The notes beneath the pieces are model-generated. The model did not search any database. It was not told where the DNA came from and saw only the letters and a program-made list of their open reading frames with translations. The position numbers and the translations under genes are program-made. 64,000 bases of DNA from Escherichia coli (GTDB lineage: Bacteria > Pseudomonadota > Gammaproteobacteria > Enterobacterales > Enterobacteriaceae): NCBI RefSeq assembly GCF_002854065.1, contig NZ_CP024147.1; one strand, written 5' to 3'. Below are positions 3,026 through 56,940 of the stretch, piece after piece; the first letter of the stretch is position 1; each line of letters begins with the position of its first letter.

Positions 3026-5866
3026 TCATTCTTCCACCAGCCACTTCTGCCAGCTTGCCCGCACCAGTTCACGCTCTGCGGTGAAGCAATCCTCCGACAC
3101 ATGGCCCGGCAATTCCTGTAATGCCAGATGATGAAGTTCATCGCGAAGCGTCGTGTAAGCACGGGTCAGCGCCATCGCTTCCTGCTCTTCCATAATGTCG
3201 TTTTGCGCCAGCAGTTCCAGAATGCGCACGTTGTCTGACCAGCGCGTTAACTTCGGTTTTTCATGAGCGTAGCGCAACACCAGATATTGGGTAATAAATT
3301 CGATATCGGTAATTCCGCCTTCATCGGCTTTGATATCAAAGCGATCGCGATGTTTATTGCCGAGATGAGCGCGCATTTTCTCGCGCATTTCCCGCACTTC
3401 TGTTTGCAGGGTTTTGCCTTCGCGCGGCAGCGCCATAATCTCACGACGCACCGCGTCAAAGTGCGCGGTGAGCTGCGGATCGCCGTACACTACACGCGCA
3501 CGCACCAGCGCCTGATGTTCCCACGTCCAGGCCTCGTTTTTCTGATAATCGGCAAATGCTTCTGCGGATGTCACCAGCATTCCCGCCGCCCCGGACGGAC
3601 GCAGTCGAGCATCCACTTCATACAAAATGCCGGAAGAGGTACGCGTACTGAACAGATGCATAATGCGTTGCGCCAGACGCAGATAAAACTGCCGCCCGTC
3701 GATTTCCCGCTCACCGTCAGTCATCGCATCCATTGGGCAATCATGGAGGAAGATAAGGTCAAGATCGGAACTGTAGCCTAACTCCCAGCCGCCCAGCTTG
3801 CCGTAGCCGACCACCGCAAAACCACGCCCTTCGCGTTCGTTCAGGTGATTCGGCTTACCGTAGCGGGCAACCATTTGAACCCACGCCTGCTGAACGACGG
3901 CATCTATCATGGCTTCCGCCAGCCAGGTTAAGTGATCGCTCACTTTCATCACCGGTAGCGTACCGGCGATATCCGCTGCGGCGATGCGTAACAGCTGCGC
4001 CTGTTTGAACTGACGCAGCGCCTCAAGCTGTTGCTCTTCGTCATCTTCCGGCACGCGCAGCAAATACTGGCGCAACTCATCGCGGTAGGCATCGGTCGCC
4101 GTCGGCTGGTAAAGGGTGTTTGGATCGAGCAATTCATCCAGCAATAATGGATAACGCGCCAGCTGGCTGGCAATCATCGGCGACGCGGCACACAGAGAAA
4201 TCAAATGTTTAAGCGCCGCGGGGAATTCACTGAGCAATTCTAAATAGGTGGTGCGGGTAACAATCCCCACCAGCAAGGCGGTAATGCGCGACAGCGTAAC
4301 GGCAGCGTCTTCACGCGCACAGACATCACTTAGCAGATGCGGCATCAGATGGTCGAGCACCTGACGTCCTCGCGGCCCGATGGTGCGCTTATCCAGCTCT
4401 TTGCGGAAATCGGCAATCAGCGTTAGCACCTGTTTGCGATCATCCTCGCTAAGATGCGCCAGCACTGGCGTAGTATCATCTTCCTGCAACGCATCCTGCC
4501 ACAGCTCACGCCACTGTTCCGACAGCGACTCTTCCTGAGTTTCACTTTCGTCGTCGCCAATCAATTCATTAAACACCCGGCGCACATTGGTCATATGTGC
4601 GGTCAGCGCCCCGGTCAATTGCGGCCAGTCAGCAAAGTCCATCGCCCACGCCAGCCGCGCACGATTAAGCTCATCAGAAGGAAGCGTCTGGGTTTGTTCG
4701 TCGTTAATGCTTTGCAGCAGGTTTTCCAGACGCCGCAGGAACAGATACGCCACTCGCAATTGTTCAGCATCGTTTTCAGAAAGCAGATGCAGCGCAGCAA
4801 TGGCGCTGAGCGTTGGCAGTAAAGAGTGCGATTGCAGCGACGGTTCGCGCCCGCCGCGAATGAGCTGGAATACCTGGACGATAAATTCAATTTCGCGAAT
4901 GCCGCCTGCGCCGAGTTTGATATTGTCGGTCAAACCACGTCGACGCACTTCACGGGCAATCATCCCTTTCATGTTGCGCAGCGACTGAATCACGCTGAAA
5001 TCGATGTAACGACGGAAAACAAACGGGCGCAGCATCGCACGCAACTCGTTAGCATAGACGCCTTCGCTATCGCCCATAATCCGCGCCTTGACCATCGCGT
5101 AACGCTCCCAGTCGCGCCCCTGCTCCTGGTAATAATCTTCCAACGCGGCAAAGCTCAGCACCAGCGGGCCACTTTCGCCAAACGGACGCAGCCGCATATC
5201 CACGCGATAGACGAAGCCATCCTGCGTTGGTTGATCCAGCACTTTAATCAGCCGCTGCCCCATGCGGGTAAAAAACTGCGCGTTATCCAGTTCCCGGCGT
5301 CCACCCTGCGTACAACCATGTTCCGGCCAGGCAAAAATCAGATCGATATCAGAGGAGAAATTCAGTTCCCCGCCGCCCAGCTTACCCATGCCTAAAATCA
5401 GCAGCGGTTGCGCTTCGCCCTGCGCATTGCACGGCGTTCCCCACTCGCGGCAGCAGGCGTCATATAGCCAGTCACGCGCCGCAACAATCAGCGTCTCCGC
5501 CAGATAGCTGAGCTGCTGCAATATGCTCTCTTTAGTAACCAGTGCCAGCGTTTGCGCCCAGGCGATACGTACCATGATGCGCCGACGGAACAGCCGCAGC
5601 TCGCGCATTAACCCGGCTTCGTCACTCACATTACTGAGCGCCTCCTGCAACCATGCAACGTAATGCTGCCATTCGTCGGCCTGCGGCGGTTGGCTTTCCA
5701 GTTCCGTCAGCCACTCTGGATGCGCAATCACGCTGTCCTGCACAAAATCACTGAAAGTAAGTACTGACTTCGCCTGTGCGCTAAGTGATTCCTCGGCTAA
5801 AGGCTCTGGCAGCCGCTCAACAACGGTCTGCCAGTACTGCTGTAACGGTGAAGAGAGCGGCTTCAT
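3026..5866 (-). CDS. glnE: Glutamine synthetase adenylyltransferase
   Basis: ORF-track frame runs to 6070, but the recalled GlnE N-terminus [22 protein letters not shown] begins at the ATG ending at 5866 (946 aa). Confidence 0.95.
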
Positions 5867-9534: not shown

Positions 9535-10356
9535 TTAAAAGAACACGACATACACCGCAGCCGCCACAATAAAGCGATAAATGGCGAACGGGATAAACGA
9601 AATGCGCTTAATCAATTGCAGGAAGGTTTTAATCGCTATCAGCGCCACCACAAAAGCGGTGATAAACCCAACGGCAAACATCGGGGTATCGCCGGTTGTC
9701 AGGAAGCCCCAGCTTTTGTAGAGATCGAGCGCCGTTGCGCCCATCATCATCGGCACCGCCAGCAGGAACGAGAACTCGGAAGCAGCGTAACGGCTCACCC
9801 CCATCAGCATCCCACCTGAAATGGTCGCCCCGGAGCGGGAGAAACCCGGCCACAGCGCCAGACACTGGAAGCAGCCAATCATAAACGCCTGACGATAGGT
9901 CATATCATCCAGACCCGGTGCGCGCGGTTCTTTCGGCTTCAGGCATTCGGCGGCAATCAGCAACAAACCGCCAACGACCAGCGCATACATCACATTTATC
10001 GGGTTAAACAATGACTTAATCGTGTCGTGGAACAACAGCCCCAGTACCACCGCCGGAATCATCCCCAGCAAAATGTGGATCAGCGTTAAACGACCTTTGC
10101 TTTCTCCTTCGTGCTGCAACGGGCGGCCAAAGTGGATGCCAATCAGGCCAAACAGACGCCGCCAGAACATCACTACTACCGCCAGAATTGATCCTAACTG
10201 GATCACAACTTCAAAGGTTTTCGCCGTGTCGCCCTCAAACCCCAACAAGTGACCGACAATAATCATATGGCCCGTGCTGGATACCGGCAGAAATTCTGTC
10301 AATCCTTCGACCACACCCAATATTGCCGCTATCAGCAGCGAGTGCATATCGCTCAT
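9535..10356 (-). CDS. uppP: Undecaprenyl-diphosphatase
   Basis: Polytopic membrane protein; start taken at second Met ([14 protein letters not shown]) to match recalled UppP, 273 aa. Confidence 0.95.
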
Positions 10357-10446
10357 CAATAAACCCCTAAATTATTAAAATGTACCGCTTGTCCGAACTA
10401 CTGCAGTATGACCAGGTTATAACCGTTTGGTTTAACAGCTGTAAAA

Positions 10447-10815
10447 TTAATTATTTTCTTTCAGATTATTGCCACGCTCAATGATTACGCCAACATTCGC
10501 CGCCCGCGCCACTGCGCCTGGCTTGCTGAGTTTGATACGCACCCACGGCGAGTTGAAGCGTGCTAACAGCAGCTCCGCCACCTCTTCCGCCACGCGCTCC
10601 ACCAGCGCAAAACGTGCCCCCTCGACGTGGCTGACCACCGTTTCTGCAATGTCAGCGTAGCTGAGGCAATCCGCCACATCATCACTTTTCGCCGCTTTAC
10701 GGTTATCCCACGCCATTTCGATATCGAACACTAACTTCTGTTCGATGGTCTGTTCCCAGTCGTAAACACCAATAGTGGTGATTACCGAAAGTTGCTCTAT
10801 AAATACAATATCCAT
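10447..10815 (-). CDS. folB: Dihydroneopterin aldolase
   Basis: 122 aa from second Met (MDIVFIEQLSVITTIGVYDWE). Confidence 0.95.
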   Translation of the reverse strand: MDIVFIEQLSVITTIGVYDWEQTIEQKLVFDIEMAWDNRKAAKSDDVADCLSYADIAETVVSHVEGARFALVERVAEEVAELLLARFNSPWVRIKLSKPGAVARAANVGVIIERGNNLKENN

Positions 10816-10919
10816 CACGTCCTGCCTGCTTTTTGGCTAACCGGATACCACTTCCGGCGAAATGTGCGTATTATCCACAGATTCATCGTTGAACACGAAT
10901 TTTCAAAACGGAACAGCTT

Positions 10920-11537
10920 ATGAGTGCAATCGCGCCTGGAATGATCCTCATCGCGTACCTCTGCGGCTCCATTTCCAGTGCCATTCTGGTTTGCCGCTTG
11001 TGTGGGCTGCCCGATCCGCGAACCAGCGGCTCCGGCAATCCAGGCGCAACCAATGTGTTACGTATCGGTGGCAAGGGAGCAGCCGTAGCAGTACTGATTT
11101 TCGACGTTCTGAAAGGAATGTTGCCTGTCTGGGGCGCGTATGAATTAGGTGTCAGCCCCTTCTGGCTAGGCTTAATTGCCATCGCCGCCTGTCTTGGACA
11201 CATCTGGCCCGTTTTCTTCGGTTTTAAAGGAGGAAAAGGCGTTGCTACCGCTTTTGGAGCCATCGCACCAATTGGCTGGGATCTCACCGGAGTAATGGCG
11301 GGAACCTGGTTACTGACCGTGCTATTGAGCGGATACTCGTCGCTGGGAGCGATTGTCAGTGCACTGATTGCTCCGTTTTATGTCTGGTGGTTTAAGCCAC
11401 AATTCACCTTCCCGGTTTCGATGCTCTCTTGCCTGATCCTGCTGCGTCATCATGACAACATCCAGCGTCTGTGGCGTCGTCAGGAGACAAAAATCTGGAC
11501 GAAATTCAAAAGAAAGCGCGAAAAGGATCCCGAGTGA
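10920..11537 (+). CDS. plsY: Glycerol-3-phosphate acyltransferase PlsY
   Basis: 205 aa membrane protein with SGNPGATN motif. Confidence 0.95.
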
Positions 11538-11549
11538 TTTCTGGTGGAT

Positions 11550-12482
11550 CTACATGACCTGATAGCCTTCATCGGGCTTGCCCAGCCGTTGCTGGCACCA
11601 TGCCGCCAGAAATTCCACGCAGACACGTAATTTCATGCTGCGATAGAGCGGCTCCCGGTAAACAGCCCAGATATTGGCGCTTTGTGCATACTCCGGCAAT
11701 ACTCGCACCAGTTTGCCACTCTCCAGAAACGGCAACACATCCCACTCGGAACGCAGCATAATCCCTTTGCCCTCCAGCGCCCATTGCAGCACAATCTCGC
11801 CGCTATTGGAGGAAAGATGCCCGCTAACCTTCACCGATTTTTTCTCCTGACCGTTCCCCAACTCCCATATTCCGTGGGTCATATCGCGCTCTTTGGTCAC
11901 CAGACAGTCATGACGACTTAATTCCTGTAGGGATTGTGGCTGCGGATATTTTTGCAGATACTCAGGTGCTGCGCATAATATTCTTTTATTTTTCGTTAAC
12001 AGATGCGCAATATAATAATCAGGAATTTCGTCATTAATACGAATATCCAGATCAATATTATCCTGCACTAAATCAATTTGCCGATCGAACAATTCAAAAT
12101 GCACCTGTAACTCAGGATAATTGCGCATAAGTTCGGTAATGGCTGGCGCAATATGGCTGCGCCCAAAACCAAAACTGCAACCAATACGAATCATCCCCTC
12201 CGGGCGCGTTTTGATTTGCGTGACGTCATCAACCAGTCGCTGATATTGGGTGAGGATTTCCAGCGCATGTTCGTAACAACGTTGGCCACTTTCAGTCAGC
12301 GCCACGCCGCGAGCGGAGCGGTTCAGCAGCGTTGTTGCCAGCGTATTTTCAAGGATTTGGATCCGCTTGGTGACAAATGCAGGCGTTTGCCCAAGCGTCG
12401 CCGCTGCAGCACTAAAACTCCCGCTGTGGACGATTTCTACCAGTACCTGCAAGTCTTTGGCTAAAGGCCAGCTATTCAGCAT
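11550..12482 (-). CDS. ttdR: LysR-family regulator of tartrate dehydratase
   Basis: 310 aa LysR-type ORF divergent from ttdA. Confidence 0.9.
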
Positions 12483-12688
12483 CGTTAATTATCCGCAGTT
12501 GTGATAAGCGCAGTGTATTTCGCAAAACATTGCCATTCCCTGCTCTGGCGCAATATTCATTCTTATTTTCGCGTTGATTCACGAACTGTTAATTACATAT
12601 TCACGGTGGCAAAAAATATAAAACCACATTTTTAGTGGTAGTTTGTAGCGGTGAATTTTTCCAGACAAATACAGAAACTGGAGTTGCC

Positions 12689-13600
12689 ATGATGAGCGAA
12701 AGTAATAAGCAACAGGCAGTGAATAAGTTGACGGAGATTGTCGCTAACTTTACCGCCATGATTTCTACCCGAATGCCTGATGACGTGGTGGATAAACTAA
12801 AACAGCTAAAGGATGCCGAAACGTCGTCAATGGGGAAAATTATCTACCATACGATGTTCGACAACATGCAAAAAGCGATTGACCTGAACCGTCCTGCCTG
12901 TCAGGACACCGGGGAGATTATGTTCTTCGTTAAAGTCGGTTCCCGCTTCCCACTGCTTGGCGAGCTGCAAAGCATACTCAAACAAGCCGTGGAAGAGGCG
13001 ACCATCAAAGCGCCACTGCGTCACAATGCGGTAGAAATTTTTGACGAAGTAAACACCGGCAAAAATACCGGTAGCGGCGTACCGTGGGTCACCTGGGATA
13101 TCGTCCCCGACGGTGACGATGCGGAAATCGAAGTTTACATGGCAGGCGGCGGCTGCACGCTACCTGGCCGCTCGAAAGTGTTAATGCCGTCAGAAGGCTA
13201 CGAAGGCGTAGTGAAATTCGTCTTCGAAAATATCTCCACCCTCGCCGTAAACGCCTGTCCACCGGTACTGGTGGGCGTGGGCATCGCCACCTCGGTGGAA
13301 ACCGCCGCCGTGCTCTCGCGAAAAGCCATTTTGCGCCCGATTGGCAGCCGCCACCCCAATCCAAAAGCGGCAGAGCTGGAGCTACGCCTGGAAGAAGGAC
13401 TCAACCGTCTGGGGATTGGTCCACAAGGGCTGACTGGCAACAGTTCAGTGATGGGCGTGCATATCGAATCTGCCGCTCGCCATCCGTCAACCATCGGCGT
13501 TGCTGTTTCTACAGGCTGCTGGGCGCATCGTCGCGGCACACTGCTGGTTCATGCCGATCTCTCCTTTGAAAATCTGTCTCACACCCGGAGTGCGTTATGA
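12689..13600 (+). CDS. ttdA: L(+)-tartrate dehydratase alpha subunit
   Basis: Start placed at MMSESNKQQ (303 aa); the ORF-track frame has an 18-residue upstream extension. Confidence 0.9.
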
Positions 13601-14202
13601 AAAAGATCCTGACAACCCCGATCAAAGCTGAAGATCTGCAAGATATTCGCGTCGGCGATGTGATCTACCTGACCGGTACGCTGGTGACCTGCCGCGACGT
13701 TTGTCACCGCCGCTTGATCGAACTGAAACGTCCGATCCCTTACGATCTCAACGGCAAAGCGATTTTCCACGCTGGCCCCATCGTGCGCAAAAACGGCGAC
13801 AAATGGGAGATGGTCTCCGTCGGTCCGACAACCAGTATGCGTATGGAAAGTTTTGAACGTGAATTTATCGAGCAGACCGGCGTGAAACTGGTGGTCGGCA
13901 AAGGCGGAATGGGGCCGCTGACCGAAGAAGGCTGCCAGAAATTCAAGGCGCTACATGTGATTTTCCCGGCAGGCTGCGCGGTGCTGGCGGCAACCCAGGT
14001 AGAAGAGATTGAAGAAGTGCACTGGACAGAACTCGGGATGCCGGAGTCACTGTGGGTCTGCCGGGTCAAAGAGTTCGGCCCGCTGATTGTCTCTATTGAT
14101 ACCCACGGCAACAACCTGATAGCCGAAAACAAAAAGCTGTTCGCCGAACGCCGCGATCCCATCGTGGAAGAGATCTGCGAGCACGTCCATTACATCAAAT
14201 AA
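13597..14202 (+). CDS. ttdB: L(+)-tartrate dehydratase beta subunit
   Basis: 201 aa; 4-bp overlap with ttdA stop. Confidence 0.9.
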
Positions 14203-14249
14203 CCCTCCCGGAGAGGCTCGCCCCTCTCCTTTTTCGCAGGCATAACACG

Positions 14250-15713
14250 ATGAAACCTTCCACTGAATGGTGGCGATACCTTGCGCCGCTGGCGGTCATC
14301 GCCATTATTGCTCTAATTCCGGTTCCCGCAGGGCTGGAGAGTCATACCTGGCTCTACTTTGCCATTTTTACTGGCGTAATCGTTGGACTGATCCTCGAAC
14401 CCGTGCCGGGTGCCGTGGTGGCGATGGTGGGTATCTCCATCATCGCCATACTCTCTCCCTGGCTGCTGTTCAGCCCGGAGCAGCTCGCTCAGCCAGGCTT
14501 TAAATTCACTGCAAAATCCCTCTCGTGGGCCGTTTCCGGTTTTTCTAATTCGGTTATCTGGCTGATTTTCGCCGCCTTTATGTTTGGCACAGGCTATGAA
14601 AAAACCGGGCTGGGGCGACGTATCGCGCTGATTCTGGTGAAAAAGATGGGGCATCGCACGCTGTTTCTTGGCTATGCGGTGATGTTCTCCGAGCTGATCC
14701 TGGCACCTGTCACACCGTCCAACTCGGCGCGTGGTGCGGGGATTATCTATCCCATCATCCGTAACCTGCCGCCGCTCTATCAATCACAACCAAACGACAG
14801 CAGTTCGCGCAGTATTGGCTCGTACATCATGTGGATGGGGATTGTTGCCGACTGCGTGACCAGCGCCATTTTCCTGACGGCGATGGCTCCTAACTTGCTG
14901 TTAATTGGACTGATGAAAAGCGCATCTCACACCACGCTGAGTTGGGCCGACTGGTTCCTTGGGATGTTGCCGCTCAGTATTTTACTGGTCCTGCTGGTTC
15001 CCTGGCTGGCTTACGTGCTGTACCCGCCTGTACTGAAGTCAGGCGATCAGGTGCCGCGCTGGGCAGAGAAGGAACTGCAGGCAATGGGCCCGCTCTGTTC
15101 GCGTGAAAAACGGATGCTGGGGCTGATGGTAGGCGCGCTGGTGCTGTGGATTTTCGGCGGTGATTATATCGATGCCGCGATGGTCGGTTACAGCGTGGTG
15201 GCGCTGATGCTGCTTCTGCGCATTATCAGTTGGGACGATATTGTCAGTAATAAAGCGGCGTGGAACGTTTTCTTCTGGCTGGCCTCGCTTATCACCCTCG
15301 CGACCGGACTCAACAACACCGGTTTTATTAGCTGGTTTGGCAAACTGTTAGCAGGCAGCTTAAGCGGTTATTCGCCAACGATGGTGATGGTGGCGTTGAT
15401 TGTGGTGTTTTATCTACTGCGCTACTTTTTCGCCAGCGCCACGGCGTATACCTCCGCTCTCGCACCGATGATGATCGCCGCCGCGCTGGCGATGCCGGAA
15501 ATCCCGCTGCCGGTGTTCTGCCTGATGGTTGGCGCGGCAATTGGTCTGGGGAGCATTCTTACACCATACGCCACCGGACCCAGTCCGATTTACTACGGTA
15601 GTGGTTATCTGCCAACGGCGGATTACTGGCGACTGGGGGCGATTTTTGGGCTGATATTCCTCGTGTTGCTGGTGATTACCGGCTTACTGTGGATGCCCGT
15701 GGTGTTGCTTTAA
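14250..15713 (+). CDS. ttdT: L-tartrate/succinate antiporter
   Basis: 487 aa polytopic transporter downstream of ttdAB. Confidence 0.9.
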   Translation: MKPSTEWWRYLAPLAVIAIIALIPVPAGLESHTWLYFAIFTGVIVGLILEPVPGAVVAMVGISIIAILSPWLLFSPEQLAQPGFKFTAKSLSWAVSGFSNSVIWLIFAAFMFGTGYEKTGLGRRIALILVKKMGHRTLFLGYAVMFSELILAPVTPSNSARGAGIIYPIIRNLPPLYQSQPNDSSSRSIGSYIMWMGIVADCVTSAIFLTAMAPNLLLIGLMKSASHTTLSWADWFLGMLPLSILLVLLVPWLAYVLYPPVLKSGDQVPRWAEKELQAMGPLCSREKRMLGLMVGALVLWIFGGDYIDAAMVGYSVVALMLLLRIISWDDIVSNKAAWNVFFWLASLITLATGLNNTGFISWFGKLLAGSLSGYSPTMVMVALIVVFYLLRYFFASATAYTSALAPMMIAAALAMPEIPLPVFCLMVGAAIGLGSILTPYATGPSPIYYGSGYLPTADYWRLGAIFGLIFLVLLVITGLLWMPVVLL

Positions 15714-15755
15714 GTGAGGACGGTGCCGGAAATTGCTCTCCGGCACCCAATAGTT

Positions 15756-16769
15756 TTACGCAGCCGGTAACTCCGCCAGCGGCCAGCGCGGACGCACGCT
15801 AACGCCGAGATCCGCCGTCGCGCCTGCTTTAAACCGCACCATTCCGGCATAGGCGATCATCGCGCCGTTATCAGTACAAAATTCCGGACGCGCGTAGAAC
15901 ACTTCGCCGCGGCGTTTTTTCATCATTTCAGCCAGCTTCGCCCGTAACGTACGGTTAGCACTCACGCCGCCCGCCATGACCAGTCGCTTAAAGCCCGTCT
16001 GATCCAGCGCCCGCTTGCACTTAATCATCAGCGTATCGACCACCGCATCTTCAAAGGCGCGGGCGATATCAGCACGCGTCTGGTCGTCGGTGCCGTTGTC
16101 ACGAATCGTGTTCGCCGCAAAGGTTTTCAGACCAGAAAAGCTGAAATCCAGCCCCGGACGGTCGGTCATCGGACGCGGGAAAACAAAGCGCCCGGCAGTA
16201 CCCTGAGCCGCCATTTTCGACAGTAACGGTCCGCCAGGATAATCCAGCCCCAGCAGCTTCGCGGTTTTATCAAACGCTTCACCAGCAGCATCATCGATAG
16301 ACTCACCGAGCAGTTCGTACTGACCAATGCCAGTCACGCTGATTAACTGCGTATGCCCGCCGGAAACCAGCAGCGCGACAAACGGAAATTCCGGCGGGTT
16401 ATCTTCCAGCATCGGCGCTAACAGATGCCCTTCCATATGGTGTACAGGGATCGCCGGAACGTTCCAGGCAAACGCCAGAGAACGCCCCACGGTCGCGCCA
16501 ACCAGCAGTGCGCCGACTAATCCAGGGCCTGCGGTATAGGCCACAGCATCAATGTCTTTTGCCGTTAAACCAGACTCCTTTAGCGCCGCCTGGATCAACG
16601 GTACGGTTTTACGCACATGATCGCGGGAGGCCAGCTCAGGCACAACGCCCCCGTAGTCAGCGTGCAATTTCACCTGACTATACAATTGGTTGGCTAACAA
16701 ACCTTTTTCATCGTCGTAAATGGCGATGCCGGTTTCATCGCAGGAAGTTTCAATACCCAGTACACGCAT
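15756..16769 (-). CDS. tsaD: tRNA N6-adenosine threonylcarbamoyltransferase
   Basis: 337 aa, [21 protein letters not shown]-terminus; divergent from rpsU. Confidence 0.95.
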
Positions 16770-16967
16770 GACTTGTTTTACCTCGCTTTATTACTGCGCA
16801 GTGTAGGACCAATGCGGGTTGATGTAAAACTTTGTTCGCCCCTGGAGAAAGCCTCGTGTATACTCCTCACCCTTATAAAAGTCCCTTTCAAAAAAGGCCG
16901 CGGTGCTTTACAAAGCAGCAGCAATTGCAGTAAAATTCCGCACCATTTTGAAATAAGCTGGCGTTGA

Positions 16968-17222
<255 letters not shown>

Positions 17223-17268
17223 TTCCCCGAGAGCGTTGCTCTCCGATCAGACCGAGTTGTAGTTGTAA

Positions 17269-17305
17269 GGCCGTGCTTCCGAAAGGAATGCGCGGCTTAT
17301 TTTCG
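17269..17305 (+). terminator. Hairpin plus T-run in the rpsU-dnaG spacer (candidate partial terminator T1)
   Basis: gccgtgcttccgaaaggaatgcgcggc followed by ttatttt. Confidence 0.45.
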
Positions 17306-17332
17306 TTTATGAATTGCTAAAAATCGGGGCCT

Positions 17333-19078
17333 ATGGCTGGACGAATCCCACGCGTATTCATTAATGATCTGCTGGCACGCACTGACATCGTCGATCTGAT
17401 CGATGCCCGTGTGAAGCTGAAAAAGCAGGGCAAGAATTTCCACGCGTGTTGTCCATTCCACAACGAGAAAACCCCGTCCTTCACCGTTAACGGTGAGAAA
17501 CAGTTTTACCACTGCTTTGGATGTGGCGCGCACGGCAACGCGATCGACTTCCTGATGAACTACGACAAGCTTGAGTTCGTCGAAACGGTCGAAGAGCTGG
17601 CGGCAATGCACAATCTTGAAGTGCCATTTGAAGCAGGTAGCGGCCCCAGCCAGATCGAGCGCCATCAGCGGCAAACGCTTTATCAGTTGATGGACGGTCT
17701 GAATACGTTTTACCAACAATCTTTACAGCAACCTGTTGCCACGTCTGCGCGCCAGTATCTGGAAAAACGCGGATTAAGCCACGAGGTTATCGCTCGCTTT
17801 GCGATTGGTTTTGCGCCCCCCGGCTGGGACAACGTCCTGAAGCGGTTTGGCGGCAATCCAGAAAATCGCCAGTCATTGATTGATGCGGGGATGTTGGTCA
17901 CTAACGATCAGGGACGCAGTTACGATCGTTTCCGCGAGCGGGTGATGTTCCCCATTCGCGATAAACGCGGTCGGGTGATTGGTTTTGGCGGGCGCGTGCT
18001 GGGCAACGATACCCCCAAATACCTGAACTCGCCGGAAACAGACATTTTCCATAAAGGCCGCCAGCTTTACGGTCTTTATGAAGCGCAGCAGGATAACGCT
18101 GAACCCAATCGTCTGCTTGTGGTCGAAGGCTATATGGACGTGGTGGCGCTGGCGCAATACGGCATTAATTACGCCGTTGCGTCGTTAGGTACGTCAACCA
18201 CCGCCGATCACATACAACTGTTGTTCCGCGCGACCAACAATGTCATTTGCTGTTATGACGGCGACCGTGCAGGCCGCGATGCCGCCTGGCGAGCACTGGA
18301 AACGGCGCTGCCTTACATGACAGACGGCCGTCAGCTACGCTTTATGTTTTTGCCTGATGGCGAAGACCCTGACACGCTGGTACGAAAAGAAGGTAAAGAA
18401 GCGTTTGAAGCGCGGATGGAGCAGGCGATGCCGCTTTCCGCATTTCTGTTTAACAGCCTGATGCCGCAAGTTGATCTGAGTACCCCTGACGGGCGCGCAC
18501 GTTTGAGTACGCTGGCACTGCCATTGATATCGCAAGTGCCGGGCGAAACGCTGCGAATATATCTTCGTCAGGAATTAGGCAACAAATTAGGCATACTTGA
18601 TGACAGCCAGCTTGAACGATTAATGCCAAAAGCGGCAGAGAGCGGCGTTTCTCGCCCTGTTCCGCAGCTAAAACGCACGACCATGCGTATACTTATAGGG
18701 TTGCTGGTGCAAAATCCAGAATTAGCGACGCTGGTCCCGCCGCTTGAGAATCTGGATGAAAATAAGCTCCCTGGACTTGGCTTATTCAGAGAACTGGTCA
18801 ACACTTGTCTCTCCCAGCCAGGTCTGACCACCGGGCAACTTTTAGAGCACTACCGTGGTACAAATAATGCTGCCACCCTTGAAAAACTGTCGATGTGGGA
18901 CGATATAGCAGATAAGAATATTGCTGAGCAAACCTTCACCGACTCACTCAACCATATGTTTGATTCGCTGCTTGAACTGCGCCAGGAAGAGTTAATCGCT
19001 CGTGAGCGCACGCATGGTTTAAGCAACGAAGAACGCCTGGAGCTCTGGACATTAAACCAGGAGCTGGCGAAAAAGTGA
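17333..19078 (+). CDS. dnaG: DNA primase
   Basis: 581 aa with CHC2 zinc finger (CCPFHNEKTPSF) and TOPRIM region. Confidence 0.97.
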   Translation: MAGRIPRVFINDLLARTDIVDLIDARVKLKKQGKNFHACCPFHNEKTPSFTVNGEKQFYHCFGCGAHGNAIDFLMNYDKLEFVETVEELAAMHNLEVPFEAGSGPSQIERHQRQTLYQLMDGLNTFYQQSLQQPVATSARQYLEKRGLSHEVIARFAIGFAPPGWDNVLKRFGGNPENRQSLIDAGMLVTNDQGRSYDRFRERVMFPIRDKRGRVIGFGGRVLGNDTPKYLNSPETDIFHKGRQLYGLYEAQQDNAEPNRLLVVEGYMDVVALAQYGINYAVASLGTSTTADHIQLLFRATNNVICCYDGDRAGRDAAWRALETALPYMTDGRQLRFMFLPDGEDPDTLVRKEGKEAFEARMEQAMPLSAFLFNSLMPQVDLSTPDGRARLSTLALPLISQVPGETLRIYLRQELGNKLGILDDSQLERLMPKAAESGVSRPVPQLKRTTMRILIGLLVQNPELATLVPPLENLDENKLPGLGLFRELVNTCLSQPGLTTGQLLEHYRGTNNAATLEKLSMWDDIADKNIAEQTFTDSLNHMFDSLLELRQEELIARERTHGLSNEERLELWTLNQELAKK

Positions 19079-21823: not shown

Positions 21824-21899
21824 GGCCCCTTAGCTCAGTGGTTAGAGCAGGCGACTCATAATCGCTTGGTCGCTGGTTCAAGTCCAGCAGGGGCCACCA
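21824..21899 (+). tRNA. ileX: tRNA-Ile (anticodon CAU, lysidine-type); island integration target
   Basis: 76 nt cloverleaf: acceptor ggcccct/aggggcc, anticodon loop ctCATaa, T-arm ggttcaagtcc, 3' CCA encoded; position between mug and yqjH. Confidence 0.85.
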
Positions 21900-21912
21900 G
21901 ATATAGCAAAGG
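21853..21912 (+). repeat. Left copy of 60-bp direct repeat (tRNA 3' half plus 13 bp) bounding the island
   Basis: Identical 60-mer gactcataatcgcttggtcgctggttcaagtccagcaggggccaccagatatagcaaagg also at 61569-61628. Confidence 0.8.
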
Positions 21913-21998
21913 GTTAGCTAATAAATCAGCTAACCCTTTTTCTTTTGCCTTTGAATTGGGTCAGGTAATGGGTCAGGTAAGCTTTTTCTCCATCTGAC

Positions 21999-22844
21999 TC
22001 AGATGGCTGATAGTTGCCCCGGATAATACTTCGCAATGATGTCATTTAGCCGATCAACCAGTTCTGGTTTTCTGAACGTGATATGCGCGGAGCCCTTCTT
22101 AAAGTATCTGATGCTGAACATCTCATCTTCATAGCAGGCTTTGCCCTGAACGGAGCGGATGTGATCATCCAGCCGAATAATGATATTTTCCCGGCTGTCG
22201 GGGATCGGTTTGCCGCTGAACAGGTGCAGCATTCTTTCCAGGTCGGCAAGTCGATCTGCCTGTTGCCCGGTGATAAGATGCAATCCCCACCGGTCCCACC
22301 TCACCAGATTGTTGACGATAATTTTACTGCCAAATTTACAGGGGCAATTGGTTTTGTAATCCCAGCTCAGTCCCCTGAAGACGTTGATGACCCCACGCTC
22401 AAACACTTCATCCTTATTCTGGTGTAGTTGCTCAAACGTACTCAGTATATTCTCTTCACTGATTTCCGGAAAATTATCGTACTCCAGTGACCGGTACCAT
22501 GTACCACGGGCCTGTGCATCCATTAAGGAAAGCATCCCTGAACGTTGCATCAGGTCACGCCAGATTTCACGGTCAAGGTTGCGGGTGATGGCTTTCATTG
22601 CCGTTTCAGGTTTCTCCATCAGCCAGCAACCGCAGCGAAAATCCTGTTTCATGGCCCAGTCCGGAGCAGTTTTACCTCCAATACTTTCTGTCATTGCTGA
22701 TATTTCAGCCAGTTGCCGGATAAGTGTGTCGATTTGCAGCAGTGTGCTCTTTCGTACAGCCAGAATGTGGCGGATACTGGTTGAGCAGATAACGTCCGTA
22801 TGCCCGTTGACCACTTCCGGACGGGCGATTGTGATGCCTGACAT
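21999..22844 (-). CDS. Island-associated hypothetical protein (possibly DUF4942-like)
   Basis: 281 aa ORF at the tRNA-proximal island end; family name from memory only. Confidence 0.45.
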   Translation of the reverse strand: MSGITIARPEVVNGHTDVICSTSIRHILAVRKSTLLQIDTLIRQLAEISAMTESIGGKTAPDWAMKQDFRCGCWLMEKPETAMKAITRNLDREIWRDLMQRSGMLSLMDAQARGTWYRSLEYDNFPEISEENILSTFEQLHQNKDEVFERGVINVFRGLSWDYKTNCPCKFGSKIIVNNLVRWDRWGLHLITGQQADRLADLERMLHLFSGKPIPDSRENIIIRLDDHIRSVQGKACYEDEMFSIRYFKKGSAHITFRKPELVDRLNDIIAKYYPGQLSAI

Positions 22845-38826: not shown

Positions 38827-40837
38827 TTTTCGGATACCAGGCTGTGGAAAACTCAGGACGAATAACGTCTATTTCAGGTTTGTTATGCAGGAAGTTATCG
38901 GGATAATAACCATAATTTTTCACTCCATTCAGTTGGAAAAGGCTCATCCAGTGAGCAAGTTTTTGCGAAGAAATAGCCTGATGCTGACCATTGTTCTGCC
39001 AGTTTTGTGCCTGTAATTCTAAAATAGATTTATCTTTTGCTTGAGGGATGCTTTTAATCTGATTGACCAGTTGTATTAACCATTGATCAGCAGATTTCTC
39101 ATCAACTCCTTCCATATAGGGCATTGCCATGATTGCCGTCCAGTCATAGCTTTGTAGAAAATCGGCATAGTTTTGGGCAAACCATGCTTCACTTTCTGGC
39201 TGCATAACGGGGAGGGCAAAAATATTTCTCGCAGTCTTAATTTGTGGGCCGCGAACAGCCTTGACTTTGGCGCTTAGCGCTAATGTGAAGTCTGTTAAGG
39301 CCTTGCGTTTAAATTGCGTCCAGCGTTTAAATTGCTCAGGATCCTCGCGGATTTCACGAATACTCGTCGCAAATCCTGCTTTCTTATAAGCAGCTATTGC
39401 TGGAGCACTGGCATCTTCGTAATCTGACAACACGGCATCGTCATGAAACAAAATGCCATCAAAAGACGCATGACCTGCAAGATCCTCATAAAGGGTACTA
39501 ATTTGTTCACGTACCCGGTCATCGAAAAGGGAGAGACGACGGTATTGCGCTGGATGAATTTGTGATGCTTGCTTATCAAATGGCAAATATTCCACCCGGG
39601 GTAATGCAGGATCTAAATCCCAACTCAATACCGGCATCCAGGCGTAAACGGCCACTCCGGCACGAGTCCTTAATTGCCATGCAACACGGTTAAACAAATC
39701 CGCTTTCATGGGTAACAGGCGATTAGGAAACCAGACCTCTTTAACCAGACCATCACCTGCTGGGTCGGCGAAAGCCTGCAAATACACACTGGAAATTTGC
39801 ATATCTTTCACCCGCTGAATCAACACATCCAGATTTCGCTCCAGCTGTTGGCGGTCAGCATCATAAACATAATCGAGATCGATGTGCATAACTCGCTCTG
39901 GTGATGTTTCCTGCACACCAATAATTTGCTGAGCAAACTCTTTAAGTGATGGATTATTGGCGATTAATACGCGCGGAATAGAATCTAACTGGGAAATATT
40001 TCCCAGTCCGGACTCCAGAGTGAAGAACATGTCATAACCCAGTTTTTTTAATTCCTCAATCGCAATACCGTTTGCTGCACCATAGGGCCAGACAAAAACC
40101 TGGGCATTTACGCCAGCATTTGTTTTCAACTTCTCGGTCATTTTTACGGCATCCTGACGAATGCGGCTGCGATATTCCGCTTCGGTTTCGTATCGCTCAT
40201 TATTTGAAAAATACATGCGATTAACAAAAGCGGGTAATTTGCTGCCAGTGGGATTAGCCTCAATACCGTAGTGAAAATTCCAGGTATGCGAGGCTATTTC
40301 AACCAACTTCGAACGTCCTATTTCACGCACTTGTTGCCAGGTGGCAAAATAGTCTCTGTCTACCATTTCATCGCCAAATTTAACTTGTTGATTCATCGGC
40401 GTGTCTATCCAACTGCCAACCGGTGCCCATAATGCGGGCCACTGGAATGCTTGCAGAATAGGGAATACACGGCTGTAAAAACTCTGAAATCCATCATCAA
40501 AGGAGAGTAAAACCGCTTTATTAGGTAGCGGTTTTCCCCCACGGTGAGCTTCCCGAATTTGGTCAACGCTGACGGGGTGATAGCCATTTTCACGAAGCCA
40601 TGCAAATTGTTCACGAAGCGCAGAAGTTCGCACTGACATAAAACGCTGATCAGCAGTATCGTCTTCAACATTATGCCAGGAGATGGCTACAAAGTTATTT
40701 TGTGGCCACGGATGTTCTGCCTTTAAAGATTCTCGACTTTGTGGTGGCGTAAACTTATTGTTTTGATGATTAAAACATGCAGAAAGCATAGCAATGCTAA
40801 TCAACAAAAACAGATATCTTATTCCTTTACGTAACAT
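38819..40837 (-). CDS. pgaB: PGA N-deacetylase lipoprotein PgaB
   Basis: 672 aa with lipobox-like N-terminus (LSAC). Confidence 0.9.
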
Positions 40838-40845
40838 AATGATCC

Positions 40846-43266
40846 TTAAAATTTGAATGTCATATCAAATTCAACATATAAATTATGCTCTCTGTTGCCG
40901 TCATAAGGCCGCTTTTCCCAACGTACCGTTGCACCGGCATTTATTACGTCATTCCACGCAACGCGTTGCCCATACCCCAGTTGTGTAACTAGATCGGTAC
41001 CATAATTTTTTTGCCATGAGGTACCAGCGCCTGCGCTAAATATTTGCTGCCAGCTATTCTCGTATTTACGCCACAATAAATGGCTTGCCTCCAGTGCCGG
41101 AACAATATCGAGCGTTTTTTCCGGGTTAAAATAGGGGGTGTCTTTTTTTGTATTCTGGCCGTAATAAATTGTGGGCTGAAAATCAATAATCAGTCGGGAT
41201 GAAGACCACATCCGTTCACTACCATTGATAAATACTTCGTGACGTTGGTTTCCATCAGAAAAATCAGTAAATGCCCATGAACTGCTGTATTGACGACGCT
41301 CATTCTGATACCAGCGTAAATATGCCTGAGCACTGTTGCCGGTTATGCCATTTTTCATTGCCCGTAGGGGGACTCGATGAGAGATGCGTTCCAGTTCAGC
41401 ACCAAGTCGCCAGTTGTCGTTAAAATCGTACCAGCCTGATAAACGTGCACCGGGTTTATGTTCGCCATTAAAATAACGTCCAGCAAATTCTGCTTCCAGC
41501 CAGATGTCGCGCGAACGCCATTCGAGGCCAGTTAACCAGTCACGAACAATCCCTTTCCCCTCGCTGAATTGACCATCAGCATAGCCAAAACCAGCAAAAG
41601 CACGCCAGTTTTCATTCAGCGGTGGTGAGTACACAACGCTGGTAAAATTCACATCATGTTTGCCATTATCCGGACCTTCGGAATCCAATCCAGAAGAACC
41701 TGAAATACGTAGTTCAGCCATGTCATGTACTTCAAGCGCACGCTGTATACGTTTTACCGCGGGGGCTTCAGGATTGCGGGTGACCACATCTTCAGTTAAT
41801 ACTTTCGCCTGTTTCCACTCCTGCAATGTTAATGCATTCCAGGCCTGTTCAACCTCCAGCAGTATATTTCTTGGCTCAAGTAGTTCGGCTTTTTTTAATT
41901 CTGTTTCTGCAGCACGAGGTAAACCACGAGCCTGTAATACGCTGGCGTAGTCGATGCGTAATCCCTGATTACCCGGTGCGTTATTGCTCATATTTCGGGT
42001 TATTGCTTCAGCTTGTGGTAAATCATTACCGTATTGCGCAGCCGCTGAAAGGAACGAATAACCCTGTAGCCACTTGTCATTAGGTATCGTTACAGGAGAA
42101 CCCATAATCCGACGGTATGGAGATGCTGTAGTAATGGTGTGATCAGTGAGCATTAACACCCCACTATAATTCTCACTTTCCAGATGGCTGTAAAAGAGAT
42201 CTGCACGCTCTTCTTCGGATAATTCAATATTTGGTTGTGCCTGGTGATAGAACAGTTGGGTCATCATCGCTTGTGCTTTTCCCGGTTGACGATCGTGCAG
42301 ATAAGCGGAAGCAACCCAATACTGTGCCCAGGGGGGAACAGATTGCCCTGTATTTTGTAAATGCTGATAATGAGAAATAACATCTTTGTAGCGTTCGCGG
42401 GTTAACAACGCGCCAAGATGGTCAACCTGAATACGCTGGTATTGTGCAATTCGGTCTGGGTTGTTTTGCCACAGAATATCTAATGCGGTGTATTGGGCGA
42501 GGGCGCGATCGGCAATGGCATAGCGTTCACTTTCACTGCGCGTAGGCATAAATGACAGTCTGACCAATTCGGCATGAATATCAGCGCGGATATCCGGCGT
42601 TAAATTGGCATCGTCAATGGCGGCAGAAAGCTGATTATTACGTAATGCCTGTACGTATTCTTCCGTATATTGCGTAGAGGAATTTTCAGGTAATGATTCT
42701 GTCATTGCCCGTAATTCATCTTGATGACGACCTGCCAGTTTATAGATATAGGCTTCTGCGAGTAAATTGGCTTTGTCAGGTGTACCGGACTTAATCTGCT
42801 GAAGTTTAACCAGTGCAGTGTCATAGTGACCCGCATCTGCCAGGGTTAAAATTTGTCCCCGTTGATAATCTTTATTTTGCGGCTCCAGAGAGAGAGTCTT
42901 TTGCCACAGTGTCAGTGAGTTTTGCCATTGCTGCATGTTACGATAAGCGATGGCGGCAGCCGCATAAGCGCGCGCGGGTAATTGCTGGTGACGGTAGCGG
43001 TTGTAAACGCTAATAACCTGTTTATCTTGTCCAGCCCATAAGGCAATCTGTAGCCAGTCAGCAATCTGGTTATTACTGAGTACAGACTTTTGTGCAAACC
43101 ATGTTAAAGCTGGCTGAGTATTACCCTTGCGAGCTTCAATAATCAATGCATCATAGGCGTTATTAACTGCACTATTCGCAACGGGACTCGACGCTAAAAA
43201 TGCAGCGGTAAGAAAATTCAAAACCAATTTGGTTTTTGGGCACCTTTTTTTACTACTTGAATACAT
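40846..43266 (-). CDS. pgaA: PGA export outer-membrane porin PgaA (TPR plus beta-barrel)
   Basis: 806 aa, MYSSSKKRCPKTK... ending ...EFDMTFKF. Confidence 0.9.
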   Translation of the reverse strand: MYSSSKKRCPKTKLVLNFLTAAFLASSPVANSAVNNAYDALIIEARKGNTQPALTWFAQKSVLSNNQIADWLQIALWAGQDKQVISVYNRYRHQQLPARAYAAAAIAYRNMQQWQNSLTLWQKTLSLEPQNKDYQRGQILTLADAGHYDTALVKLQQIKSGTPDKANLLAEAYIYKLAGRHQDELRAMTESLPENSSTQYTEEYVQALRNNQLSAAIDDANLTPDIRADIHAELVRLSFMPTRSESERYAIADRALAQYTALDILWQNNPDRIAQYQRIQVDHLGALLTRERYKDVISHYQHLQNTGQSVPPWAQYWVASAYLHDRQPGKAQAMMTQLFYHQAQPNIELSEEERADLFYSHLESENYSGVLMLTDHTITTASPYRRIMGSPVTIPNDKWLQGYSFLSAAAQYGNDLPQAEAITRNMSNNAPGNQGLRIDYASVLQARGLPRAAETELKKAELLEPRNILLEVEQAWNALTLQEWKQAKVLTEDVVTRNPEAPAVKRIQRALEVHDMAELRISGSSGLDSEGPDNGKHDVNFTSVVYSPPLNENWRAFAGFGYADGQFSEGKGIVRDWLTGLEWRSRDIWLEAEFAGRYFNGEHKPGARLSGWYDFNDNWRLGAELERISHRVPLRAMKNGITGNSAQAYLRWYQNERRQYSSSWAFTDFSDGNQRHEVFINGSERMWSSSRLIIDFQPTIYYGQNTKKDTPYFNPEKTLDIVPALEASHLLWRKYENSWQQIFSAGAGTSWQKNYGTDLVTQLGYGQRVAWNDVINAGATVRWEKRPYDGNREHNLYVEFDMTFKF

Positions 43267-43772
43267 CCTGTATTACTCCATGTATTGCAAAAATACTCTC
43301 TTCGCGAATGTCCAGTTGGCTGAAAAGAAAAGACTTATTCACATCAAAAACCCGTAATTAAACGAGGAATAAAGACGCTAATTGTTGATAGTGAGATGAA
43401 GAAATGGTGAGCTGAGTGTTCCTATCAAATCCTTTACTTTCCTCGAAAATCCATCCCAAAAGGGAAGGACTACGGGGATTCTGCATAATTCCCTATGCGT
43501 CTTTCAAGGTAATAAAGGATTAAAATAATTAAATCAGTAAATTCCGAGTGGTGATTTCGGATTTTTCGAAAACCCTGATTCAATGCGGTGTTGCAGCATT
43601 ATTTTCTGTAATAATTACTCTTGATGACTATATGAATTATTGTTTTATGGGGGGGTATAATGATTTATGAGTTTTTACAACTTATTGCAGTAGTGAATCT
43701 GTAAAATATTAAGATGGTGATTGTTTACCTGTGTAACTATGCTCGTTAGGGAAGGTGCGAACAAGTTCCTGA

Positions 43773-43943
<171 letters not shown>

Positions 43944-43956
43944 TAGTGACTCCAAC

Positions 43957-44460
43957 TTACTGATAGTGTTTTATGTTCAGATAATGCCCGATGACCTTGT
44001 CATGCAGCTCCACCGATTTTGAGAACGACAGTGACTTCCGTCCCAGCCTTGCCAGATGTTGTCTCAGATTCAGGTTATGTCGCTCAATGCGCTGAGTGTA
44101 ACGCTTGCTGATAACGTGCAGCTTTCCCTTCAGGCGGGGTTCATACAGCGGCCAGCCATCCGTCATCCATACCACGACCTCAAAGGCCGACAGCAGGCTC
44201 AGAAGACGCTCCAGTGTGGCCAGAGTGCGTTCACCGAAGACGTGCGCCACAACCGTCCTCCGTATCCTGTCATACGCGTAAAACAGCCAGCGCTGACGTG
44301 ATTTAGCACCGACGTAGCCCCACTGTTCGTCCATTTCCGCGCAGACGATGACGTCACTGCCCGGCTGTATGCGCGAGGTTACCGACTGCGGCCTGAGTTT
44401 TTTAAATGGCGGAAAATCGTGTTGAGGCCAACGCCCATAATGCGGGCAGTTGCCCGGCAT
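43957..44460 (-). CDS. insB: IS1 InsB (copy 2)
   Basis: 167 aa. Confidence 0.85.
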
Positions 44461-44654
44461 CCAACGCCATTCATGGCCATATCAATGATTTTCTGGTGCG
44501 TACCGGGTTGAGAAGCGGTGTAAGTGAACTGCAGTTGCCATGTTTTACGGCAGTGAGAGCAGAGATAGCGCTGATGTCCGGCAGTGCTTTTGCCGTTACG
44601 TACCACCCCGTCAGTAGCTGAACAGGAGGGACAGCTGATAGAAACAGAAGCCAC
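44379..44654 (-). CDS. insA: IS1 InsA (copy 2)
   Basis: 91 aa, near-identical to copy 1. Confidence 0.9.
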
Positions 44655-44686
44655 TAGAGCACCTCAAAAACACCATCATACACTAA

Positions 44687-45571
<885 letters not shown>

Positions 45572-45823
45572 TAAAAACCGGAAATAACGCCAGAAATGGT
45601 GGAAAAAATAGCCTAAATAGGCTGATTCGATGTGTTTGCGGGAAAAAAATCGGCCCAGATCCGCGAAATTTTAATCAACGAGTCAGCTTGGGAAGAAATG
45701 ACCTGCTTATTCGCACCTTCCTTAGTATCTATTATATTTAGCTATTTATATTGACAATGGCATGTTTATTATATCTATTAATAGTGTAAAGAGATTTTAC
45801 AGCCTTCAGGTTGGAGTGGTTTT

Positions 45824-47191: not shown

Positions 47192-47296
47192 TTCTGTCGC
47201 CAGTTGTCGAACCCCTGTCGGGGCTTCTCATCCCCCCGGCATGTGCAACATACGAAAAAAAAGCCCGTACTTTCGTACGAGCTCTTCTTTAAATAT

Positions 47297-56110: not shown

Positions 56111-56358
56111 AAATGCCTCTCTTTTCATTAATGGGTTAGTAAAGTAGCAGCAACTCCCGCTATAATAGCGAAAATAGCTGCTGTTCAGACCTAATGTTCT
56201 GAAAAATACAGAATATCTGTAGATCTGATGTTTAATAACCGATAAGGTTAATTCAGTTCAGACTGTGTTATTTACCACGAAATATCATTCATGTTTCTCA
56301 TTCTTAACACCTCCTAAAATTATTTCACTAACACCTTCCCCCCGGTCTTTTTCCTTTC

Positions 56359-56586
56359 TCAGGAATCAGCCAGAACCATAGTGTAAATATTAACGGGCCC
56401 ACGTAAATTTCCGGAGCTGCACACGTCAATCTGATTCTGACAGGCAATTGACATCGCTGTTAATAATGATGTTGTAGTCATAGCCAGAGATGCTTTTTCA
56501 TTTTGTTGAGTTTCAATTATTGCATTTCCAGTCATTGATGGTTGCGCATATACTGGATACGGAGTATCCGGTTTGATGTAAGACAT
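56359..56586 (-). pseudogene. Duplicated 5' fragment (75 codons) of the YfjI-like gene
   Basis: MSYIKPDTPYPVYAQPSMTGNAIIETQQNEKASLAMTTTSLLTAMSIACQNQIDVC... parallels the N-terminus of the 54677-56110 gene; part of a ~330-bp segmental duplication. Confidence 0.5.
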
Positions 56587-56691
56587 AAATATTCCCTTTT
56601 TTCGTAATGACTTTCGGTTATAGCAGCTATTTCCGCTACAATAGCAACAATAGCTGCTATACAGACTGGATATACTGAAAATACAAACAGT

Positions 56692-56940
56692 TCATCTGGT
56701 CTGTATCCAGCAGAGAAGGTCACTTAACAACCATCCGCAAGATTTCTTTCCGATAGACTTACGTGGTGGAAATTTTCCCTCCCGTTCAAGTTTCCACGCT
56801 TGCGTACGAGAAACTGACGTGATCTCATATCGTTCCTTTTCACGTACCAGTCTGTCGCATTCAATCCCATAAGCTTTCAAAATGACCAGACGCTGTTCAT
56901 CTGTTAATGGAAGCCACATACTACCCTCCTGATATATCAA
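56692..56940 (-). CDS. alpA: AlpA-family phage/island transcriptional regulator (winged-helix DNA-binding)
   Basis: C-terminal ...ITSVSRTQAWKLEREGKFPPRKSIGKKSCGWLLSDLLCWIQTR resembles AlpA/Vis; true start may be the internal Met at 56919. Confidence 0.65.
   Translation of the reverse strand: MIYQEGSMWLPLTDEQRLVILKAYGIECDRLVREKERYEITSVSRTQAWKLEREGKFPPRKSIGKKSCGWLLSDLLCWIQTR

Follow-up and report, generated by a model that had tools for sequence, protein, structure and literature searches.

The 64-kb stretch of Escherichia coli DNA analyzed here (the window) carries an island inserted in a tRNA gene, and the same 25-nt sequence is found just inside both ends of this island. The locus raises the question of which protein reads the repeated sequence, and whether the two copies belong to the recombination site of the island.

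The island and its attachment site

The window has the order dnaG-rpoD-mug-ileX-island-nfeF-nfeR-aer, with the island located in tRNA-Ile2 (ileX) between mug and nfeF. Removing positions 21913-61628 restores an empty site that matches E. coli genomes over its full length at 100% identity, and the island is therefore a precise insertion of 39,716 bp. The empty site is at least 80% covered in one place in 4955 of 5426 complete E. coli genomes. The left arm of the island is found in 467 complete E. coli genomes and the right arm in 457 (~8%).

The two att identity blocks begin at the anticodon stem-loop and extend 13 nt past the tRNA 3' end. The tRNA gene at attL is an intact hybrid ileX, whose 3' part is supplied by the island. 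In addition, a hairpin of the island (21908-21939) substitutes for the native tRNA terminator, which is now displaced to the far end of the island. The stem sequence of this hairpin varies among island variants, and its pairing is maintained by compensatory changes. The hybrid tRNA-Ile2 genes of E. coli EC2641 and CT01 (loci L003 and L004; 1412-1487) possess element-derived T-arms, CCCCG...CGGGG and GTTGG...CCAAC, compared with the native GCTGG...CCAGC. From these hybrid T-arms, the crossover can be assigned to the anticodon stem-loop, 5' of tRNA position 49. Their changes are again compensatory, indicating that the islands rewrite the 3' half of an essential tRNA with its folding preserved.

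Table 1 Features of the island ends and of the reconstructed attP site in the window.
Feature	Position	Strand	Basis or remark
tRNA-Ile2 (ileX), anticodon CAU	21824..21899	+	ARAGORN; Rfam tRNA 73 bits; RefSeq tRNA-Ile
Left 60-nt att identity block	21853..21912	+	100% identical to 61569-61628
Island terminator hairpin	21908..21939	+	terminator scan; between the core and the putative P' arm sites
Doubled motif, putative P' (tRNA-proximal) arm sites	21956..21980	+	58 nt past tRNA 3' end
AlpA-type small HTH gene, 75 aa (MWLPL...)	56692..56919	-	ORF listing
Tyrosine integrase gene, 438 aa	60056..61372	-	Pfam domains
Doubled motif, putative P (int-proximal) arm sites	61418..61442	+	45 nt from int start codon, 126 nt from att block
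Candidate int promoter, TTGGTT (61468-61473)-17-TACGAT (61445-61450)	61445..61473	-	relaxed scan; weak candidate
IHF-consensus match AATCAAGTAATTA	61495-61507	-	read from sequence; between P pair and core
TATAAT, alternative int -10	61505-61510	-	overlaps the IHF-consensus match
Right 60-nt att identity block (attR)	61569..61628	+	displaced native ileX 3' part; native terminator next (61624-61651)

A doubled motif on both arms of attP

The 25-mer TTGGGTCAGGTAATGGGTCAGGTAA occurs exactly twice in the window, both copies being on the plus strand (Table 1). No additional match is found in the window with up to three mismatches, and 100 dinucleotide-preserving shuffles of the window give an expectation of zero chance matches. 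This result is in line with the first-pass annotation of this DNA, which had reported two exact direct copies at the same positions. The annotation had further described the repeat as a tandem duplication of a 12-bp unit. The 12-nt period holds, but the conserved unit is the 11-mer GGGTCAGGTAA, whereas the twelfth base (T, C or G) and the leading TT of the 25-mer are variable among relatives. Each 25-mer is composed of two such units, located at 21958-21968, 21970-21980, 61420-61430, and 61432-61442, and no other exact copy of the 11-mer exists in the 64 kb.

The distances to neighboring features agree with the earlier description. The right 25-mer is separated by 45 nt from the integrase start codon at 61372 and by 126 nt from the right att repeat, and 43 nt lie between the left att repeat and the left 25-mer. 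In the attP form, the order is ATG, 45 nt, pair, 126 nt, 60-nt block, 43 nt, pair. The two copies thus flank the core on opposite sides in the excised form, which rules out that the motif is an extension of the att duplication. The motif is the sole repeat family that is common to both arms of the reconstructed attP and is also kept in relatives. A reading of the motif as an RNA element was rejected because an Rfam search of both arms gave no family over it. In the searchable literature, the motif string gave only coincidental primer or oligonucleotide matches.

Conservation of the motif in close relatives

Loci for the conservation test were picked by integrase similarity alone, and include integrases of 85% (E. 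coli CX21), 84% (Yersinia-type), 78% (Xenorhabdus), 72% (Providencia), and 70% identity to that of the window. Absence of the motif from related elements had been named at the outset as an argument against integrase arm sites. The 11-nt unit GGGTCAGGTAA is present and invariant beside integrase homologues of 70-86% identity, other genera included, while the flanking DNA has diverged. In the alignment of the int-proximal intergenic regions of these integrase-selected loci (A3), 20 of 21 consecutive motif columns are invariant, at a mean column identity of 68%. The two least similar loci (L010 and L011) adjoin a different tRNA fragment, with the anticodon loop CTCTTAA, and still keep the motif, indicating that the motif follows the integrase and not the core. 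In several relatives, the pair and the int start are separated by a third unit in inverted orientation; this extra copy is present in the 84-86% relatives and absent from the window. One relative has three tandem units.

The distribution of the motif was examined by an exact scan for GGGTCAGGTAANGGGTCAGGTAA in one genome per species, covering 100,044 species. The scan returned 41 loci in 27 genomes, ranging from Escherichia, Yersinia, Citrobacter, Kluyvera, and Brenneria to Photorhabdus, Vibrio, and Salinivibrio. All 41 loci are at one of the two arm positions and none is internal. Twenty are located 47-48 nt from the start of an integrase that is 82-98% identical to that of the window, on the opposite strand. 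The other 21 lie past the 3' end of tRNA-Ile2, next to 15 complete genes (at 58-59 nt) and 6 fragments within tandem arrays. Exactly one int-proximal and one tRNA-proximal copy are found in 14 genomes, and the pairs that share a contig are co-oriented (6/6).

Loci that had been retrieved with the motif would make a circular test of its conservation, and their alignments were used for spacing and flank divergence only. Around the motif, which stays invariant, flanks diverge to ~70-80% identity. In other E. coli strains, divergent island versions with flanks of ~80% identity retain a near-perfect 25-mer on both arms. The DNA beyond the P' copy encodes DUF4942 in most enterics and is unrelated in Vibrio, Salinivibrio, and several other loci. 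This varying cargo indicates that the motif belongs to the att end, not to the cargo.

Distant relatives keep the layout and change the motif

Loci with integrase homologues of 33-57% identity show the same layout with a different motif. Relatives with integrases of 57%, 54%, 52%, and 50% identity carry TTACGTCACC, ACTACAGGTA, TTACTTGACT, and ACTACAGGCA, respectively, in an unchanged layout. Particularly, the 57% relative (L012) has TTACGTCACCcaCTACGTCACC together with an inverted AGGTGACGTAA, the Zobellella relative (54%) has four units of ACTACAGGTA, the Vibrio parahaemolyticus relative (52%) has TTACTTGACTAATTACTTGACTA with an inverted copy, and the Shewanella relative (50%) has two units of ACTACAGGCA. 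The arms of the Vibrio locus L017 carry TAGTCAAGTAA.

In each of the small complete elements in Vibrio, Zobellella, and Shewanella, both arms carry a tandem pair of an element-specific motif. The distance from the distal pair to the tRNA 3' end is 59 nt in Vibrio, 58 nt in Zobellella, and 59 nt in Shewanella, compared with 58 nt in the window. The proximal pair of the Vibrio element lies 121 nt from the core, compared with 126 nt in the window. These elements (L017, 9744-15976; L060, ~9760-17996; L061, ~9790-15926; in the order Vibrio, Zobellella, Shewanella) are int-alpA-primase elements of 6-8 kb. All three are located at the rpoD-linked tRNA-Ile2, as is the E. coli island, and they resemble minimal satellite-type relatives.

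The change of motif accompanies the N-terminal domain of the integrase. This domain is at least 70% identical to that of the window in relatives that keep the motif, and 35-48% identical in those that have switched it. In the latter group, the N-domain is less conserved than the catalytic part and the rest of the protein (53-62%).

The layout was also examined in viral contigs, by a search for a tandem 10-mer with at most one mismatch and a period of 10-13 within 260 nt upstream of int. Such a tandem is present in 57 of 65 integrase homologue loci (33-100% identity), and the remaining 8 have a tandem 10-mer with two mismatches. In the controls, such a tandem was seen in 27 of 1300 shuffles and in 4 of 195 coding windows (2%). 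One Rosenbergiella locus (L013; 56% integrase) shows no clear motif upstream of int. We treated this locus as decayed, not as a counter-example, because its int is short, looks 5'-truncated, begins at a non-start codon, and lies ~80 nt from a tRNA fragment.

Tandem arrays at tRNA-Ile2 are found in L023, L024, L025, L029, L033, and L042, with different neighboring elements. Each upstream neighbor carries a doubled motif of its own at the corresponding position, which lies ~100-260 nt upstream of the GGGTCAGGTAA pair. These motifs include TTAGTCAAACA twice, adjoining an integrase of 49.5% identity, CCGGGGATAT twice, and P4-like TGCCCCC pairs.

Candidate binders of the motif

The integrase of the island contains an Arm-DNA-bind_3 domain at residues 5-97 (PF13356, E=5e-14), together with Phage_int_M (PF22022) and Phage_integrase (PF00589) domains. 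It is 22% identical to P4 Int (BLASTP, E=1e-15). A PDB sequence search with this protein gave a sole, weak match to 3ju0, the solved arm-binding domain of the HAI7 integrase.

We infer that the integrase binds the motif, and the copies of GGGTCAGGTAAnGGGTCAGGTAA are probably the arm-type binding sites of this P4-family tyrosine integrase. The first-pass annotation had offered the same reading. It is now supported by comparison as well as by the sequence facts and domain content: the motif is conserved, it changes with the integrase, its distances are fixed, its layout parallels that of P4, and the protein has an arm-binding domain. The presence of the motif on both arms, four half-sites that match a tetramer, and the arm-repeat label given to the equivalent P4 sequences also favor the integrase. 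Moreover, any integrase that possesses an arm-binding domain requires arm sites, and this motif is the only conserved two-arm repeat family in attP.

The AlpA-type small HTH protein is a candidate excisionase (recombination directionality factor) and a candidate rival binder. It is 66-70% identical to the proteins of L010 and L011 that match Phage_AlpA (PF05930), and its gene is found in the window and in each relative with sufficient DNA. The doubled motif could be bound by this protein instead of the integrase, as an excisionase site, as a site for regulation of the int promoter, or both, which we consider unlikely. The AlpA-type protein and the integrase co-vary with the motif equally well: the identity of the former to the window protein is 66-71% in relatives that keep the motif and 20-33% in those that switch it. 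Since the AlpA-type protein diverges in parallel to the integrase, with the two identities tracking each other at every locus with enough DNA, covariation cannot tell the two candidate binders apart. Binding sites of excisionases are typically direct repeats spaced by about one helical turn (PMC7498355), and the period of the motif is 12 nt. In addition, P4 Vis, a relative of AlpA, binds attP and represses Pint (PMC7286903, PMC2603039), and the authors who described the comparable motif of helper-embedded PICI satellites left the choice between integrase and AlpA open (PMC10111431).

The architecture of attP, however, argues for the integrase. In the window and in 14 other genomes, both arms carry the motif, and its distances from the core are fixed. 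Characterized excisionases (lambda Xis, P2 Cox, L5 Xis, and TorI) act on one arm, a pattern that this motif does not follow. The sequences at the equivalent positions of P4 are annotated as arm repeats, and a different tandem repeat, AAACAATTA (61510-61530), is confined to a single arm and better positioned as an excisionase site. There is a small chance that the AlpA-type protein reads the motif on both arms, alone or together with the integrase; it would then be an architectural excisionase that works on two arms and controls the int promoter as well. To our knowledge, no characterized directionality factor acts in this way. If the AlpA-type protein were the binder, the true arm sites of a large integrase clade would still have to be found.

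The repeats might instead be operators or iterons of another island function that lie near the ends by coincidence, serving for example a DUF3987/primase-type replication initiator (cf. P4 ori/crr) or a transcription factor for int and the DUF4942 module. The iterons of P4 (crr) are close to its attP, and the int-proximal copy lies in a putative promoter region. This explanation is nevertheless very improbable, given that the 41 occurrences elsewhere are confined to arm positions, that the spacing from the tRNA end is fixed although the cargo beside the P' arm is unrelated, and that no extra copies are found near the primase-like genes of the window. A functionless chance or historical duplicate, such as a remnant of inter-island recombination or of a tandem array of the kind seen at tRNA-Ile2 in other genomes, is effectively refuted by conservation and covariation, as no match is expected by chance, the motif stays invariant between diverging flanks, and both arms change in concert in the Vibrio, Zobellella, and Shewanella elements.

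With the integrase as the binder, the doubled sites in the excised circle would flank the crossover region in the anticodon stem-loop of tRNA-Ile2. The doubled site of the P arm would lie ~143 nt from the crossover region on the int side. The co-oriented doubled site of the P' arm would lie ~111 nt to the other side, beyond the tRNA 3' half and the island terminator. The four half-sites would be held by the N-terminal domains (residues ~5-97) of four integrase protomers, with their catalytic domains placed on the core, and the conserved IHF-like site between the P sites and the core would help to fold the DNA. The intasome assembled in this way may carry out integration into ileX and, together with an AlpA-type excisionase, excision. 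Integrase bound at the P pair is also predicted to repress int transcription.

Comparison with known systems

The closest parallel is provided by the attP arm repeats of satellite phage P4 (Pierson and Kahn 1987), which are annotated in GenBank X51522. In this record, the 12-bp units labeled as attP arm sequence repeats comprise an inverted unit over the int start (3915-3926), a tandem pair (3942-3965), and, beyond the core (4078-4097), a co-oriented pair (4151-4174). P4 and the island share the 12-bp period, a pair between the int start and the core, a co-oriented pair beyond the core, an int gene transcribed away from the core, a tRNA target, and an integrase of the same family. The inverted extra unit of P4 near the int start resembles that of the 84-86% relatives, unlike the window. 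The order in P4 is ATG, 15 nt, pair, 112 nt, core, 53 nt, pair, and the distances of 112 and 53 nt differ slightly from the 126 and 43 nt of the island. The motifs themselves are unrelated (TTGGGGGCAYAW in P4, GGGTCAGGTAA in the island). P4 targets leuX with a 20-nt core and is an 11.6-kb satellite phage, whereas the island targets ileX with a 60-nt identity block and is a 39.7-kb composite.

Similar to the island integrase, lambda Int is a heterobivalent integrase with an N-terminal arm-binding domain, which recognizes sites of ~10 nt on both arms (P1, P2, P'1-P'3). The tandem P' sites are a further shared feature, and the IHF site between the arm sites and the core of lambda has a probable counterpart in the island. 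The two systems differ in integrase subfamily (lambda N-domain family versus PF13356) and in the number and spacing of sites, and lambda has a short core outside any tRNA gene, whereas the island core is within one. The lambda arm consensus, which we take to be (C/A)AGTCACTAT, shares GTCA with the island motif, a similarity that serves as a lead only.

Helper-embedded PICI satellites contain tgTGTATTGCan twice with a 12-nt period, in two co-oriented copies at fixed distances from the attP center (PMC10111431, 2023). As in the island, the arm domain of the integrase and AlpA are both possible binders. The satellites differ from the island in the motif, in the distances (-81/+132 compared with about -143/+111), and in their targets, which are prophage late genes instead of a tRNA gene. 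Other PICIs were reported to lack the motif of these satellites (PMC10111431); among the elements compared here, by contrast, every integrase subgroup possesses a version of its own.

In KplE1 (IntS/TorI) and ICEMlSymR7A (IntS/RdfS), arm-type sites overlap or adjoin the int promoter, and the integrase represses its own synthesis (PMC2951348, PMC11963761). ICEMlSymR7A has five 10-nt IntS arm motifs, all of which are required (PMC11963761). In both elements int is located beside the intact tRNA gene (attL), whereas the int gene of the island is beside the displaced tRNA fragment (attR). Their motifs are unrelated to that of the island, and binding and regulation were shown experimentally there, whereas the island is known from its sequence.

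Candidate int promoters and other features of attP

We also infer a role for IHF at attP. The invariant TCA-N5-TTA columns of alignment A3 fit the IHF consensus WATCAANNNNTTR and correspond to the match located between the P pair and the core (Table 1). A strict sigma-70 scan of both arm regions gave no promoter, and a relaxed scan gave a weak candidate for int, whose -10 hexamer TACGAT stops 2 nt short of the first arm unit. Among 12 representative elements in the relaxed scan, 6 have a -10-like hexamer that stops 1-3 nt short of the first unit, and the equivalents in relatives are TTGGTT-17-TATTAT, TTGTCT-17-TATGAT, TTGTGC-17-TATCAT, and TTGTTC-17-TATCAT. The alternative -10, TATAAT, ends 62 nt upstream of the motif, and a -10-like hexamer is found 61-63 nt upstream in the window, L009, L010, and L011. 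Both weak candidates are on the int strand, and both recur in relatives at matching positions. Either candidate is separated from the int start codon by the P pair, so that a protein bound to this pair should repress int. Judged from this arrangement, int autoregulation through the P pair is plausible in the island. Self-repression is known for P4 Int, PAI I536 IntI, KplE1 IntS, and ICEMlSymR7A IntS (PMC7286903, PMC2951348, PMC11963761).

Two further sequence elements were found in the arms. The 9-nt sequence AAACAATTA occurs twice with a 12-nt spacing (61510-61518 and 61522-61530), between the P pair and the core of the int-proximal arm only. It is partly conserved in the 85% variants, and may serve as an excisionase or IHF-associated site. 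An 11-nt inverted pair, ATGGAGAAAAA (61453-61463) and TTTTTCTCCAT (21983-21993), lies a few bases beyond the motif on each arm. We regard this pair as probably a chance occurrence because it is not conserved in related islands, the 85% variants.

Significance of the arm layout

The motif pair appears to represent P4-type arm repeats, which are of a known kind, and the motif sequence itself is new to the searchable literature. Our analysis extends this kind usefully. The P4-like integrase clade, from 33 to 100% identity and from 6-kb satellites to 40-kb islands, combines a rigid two-by-two arm layout and spacing with lineage-specific motifs. The motif differs wherever the integrase N-terminal domain has diverged, and the collected loci provide a data set for how the PF13356 domain reads DNA.

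For the ileX islands, the comparison defines a full recombination site, composed of the core, two putative doubled arm sites, a probable IHF site, and a replacement tRNA terminator. It provides precise boundaries and a mobility test for islands that occur in ~8% of complete E. coli genomes and in many other Gammaproteobacteria. The layout could also help to predict cross-mobilization of islands in tandem arrays and to choose orthogonal integrase/attP pairs for genome engineering.

Other features of the island

The island is composite. A CP4-like DUF4942/cbtA-cbeA module is located at the tRNA end, and the island further contains pga genes, IS elements, and a second integrase. The far end comprises int, two genes without Pfam matches, the AlpA-type gene, and a DUF3987/YfjI gene.

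The second tyrosine integrase (402 aa, 47470-48678, plus strand) adjoins, in a near-identical E. coli island, an annotated RtT sRNA, and in the window pgaA-type and GGDEF genes with several IS elements are found around ~40800-47200. The second integrase and its surroundings suggest another element or remnant nested in the island.

Two direct repeats were observed inside the island. The first (36260-36559 and 43941-44240; 300 nt, 95% identity) overlaps twin 167-aa ORFs and is probably IS-related. The second (55839-56133 and 56315-56609; 295 nt, 75% identity) is located beside or within the YfjI/DUF3987 gene region. In addition, a perfect palindrome, CCATCTGA-C-TCAGATGG (21990-22006), overlaps the DUF4942 stop codon, 10 nt past the P' motif.
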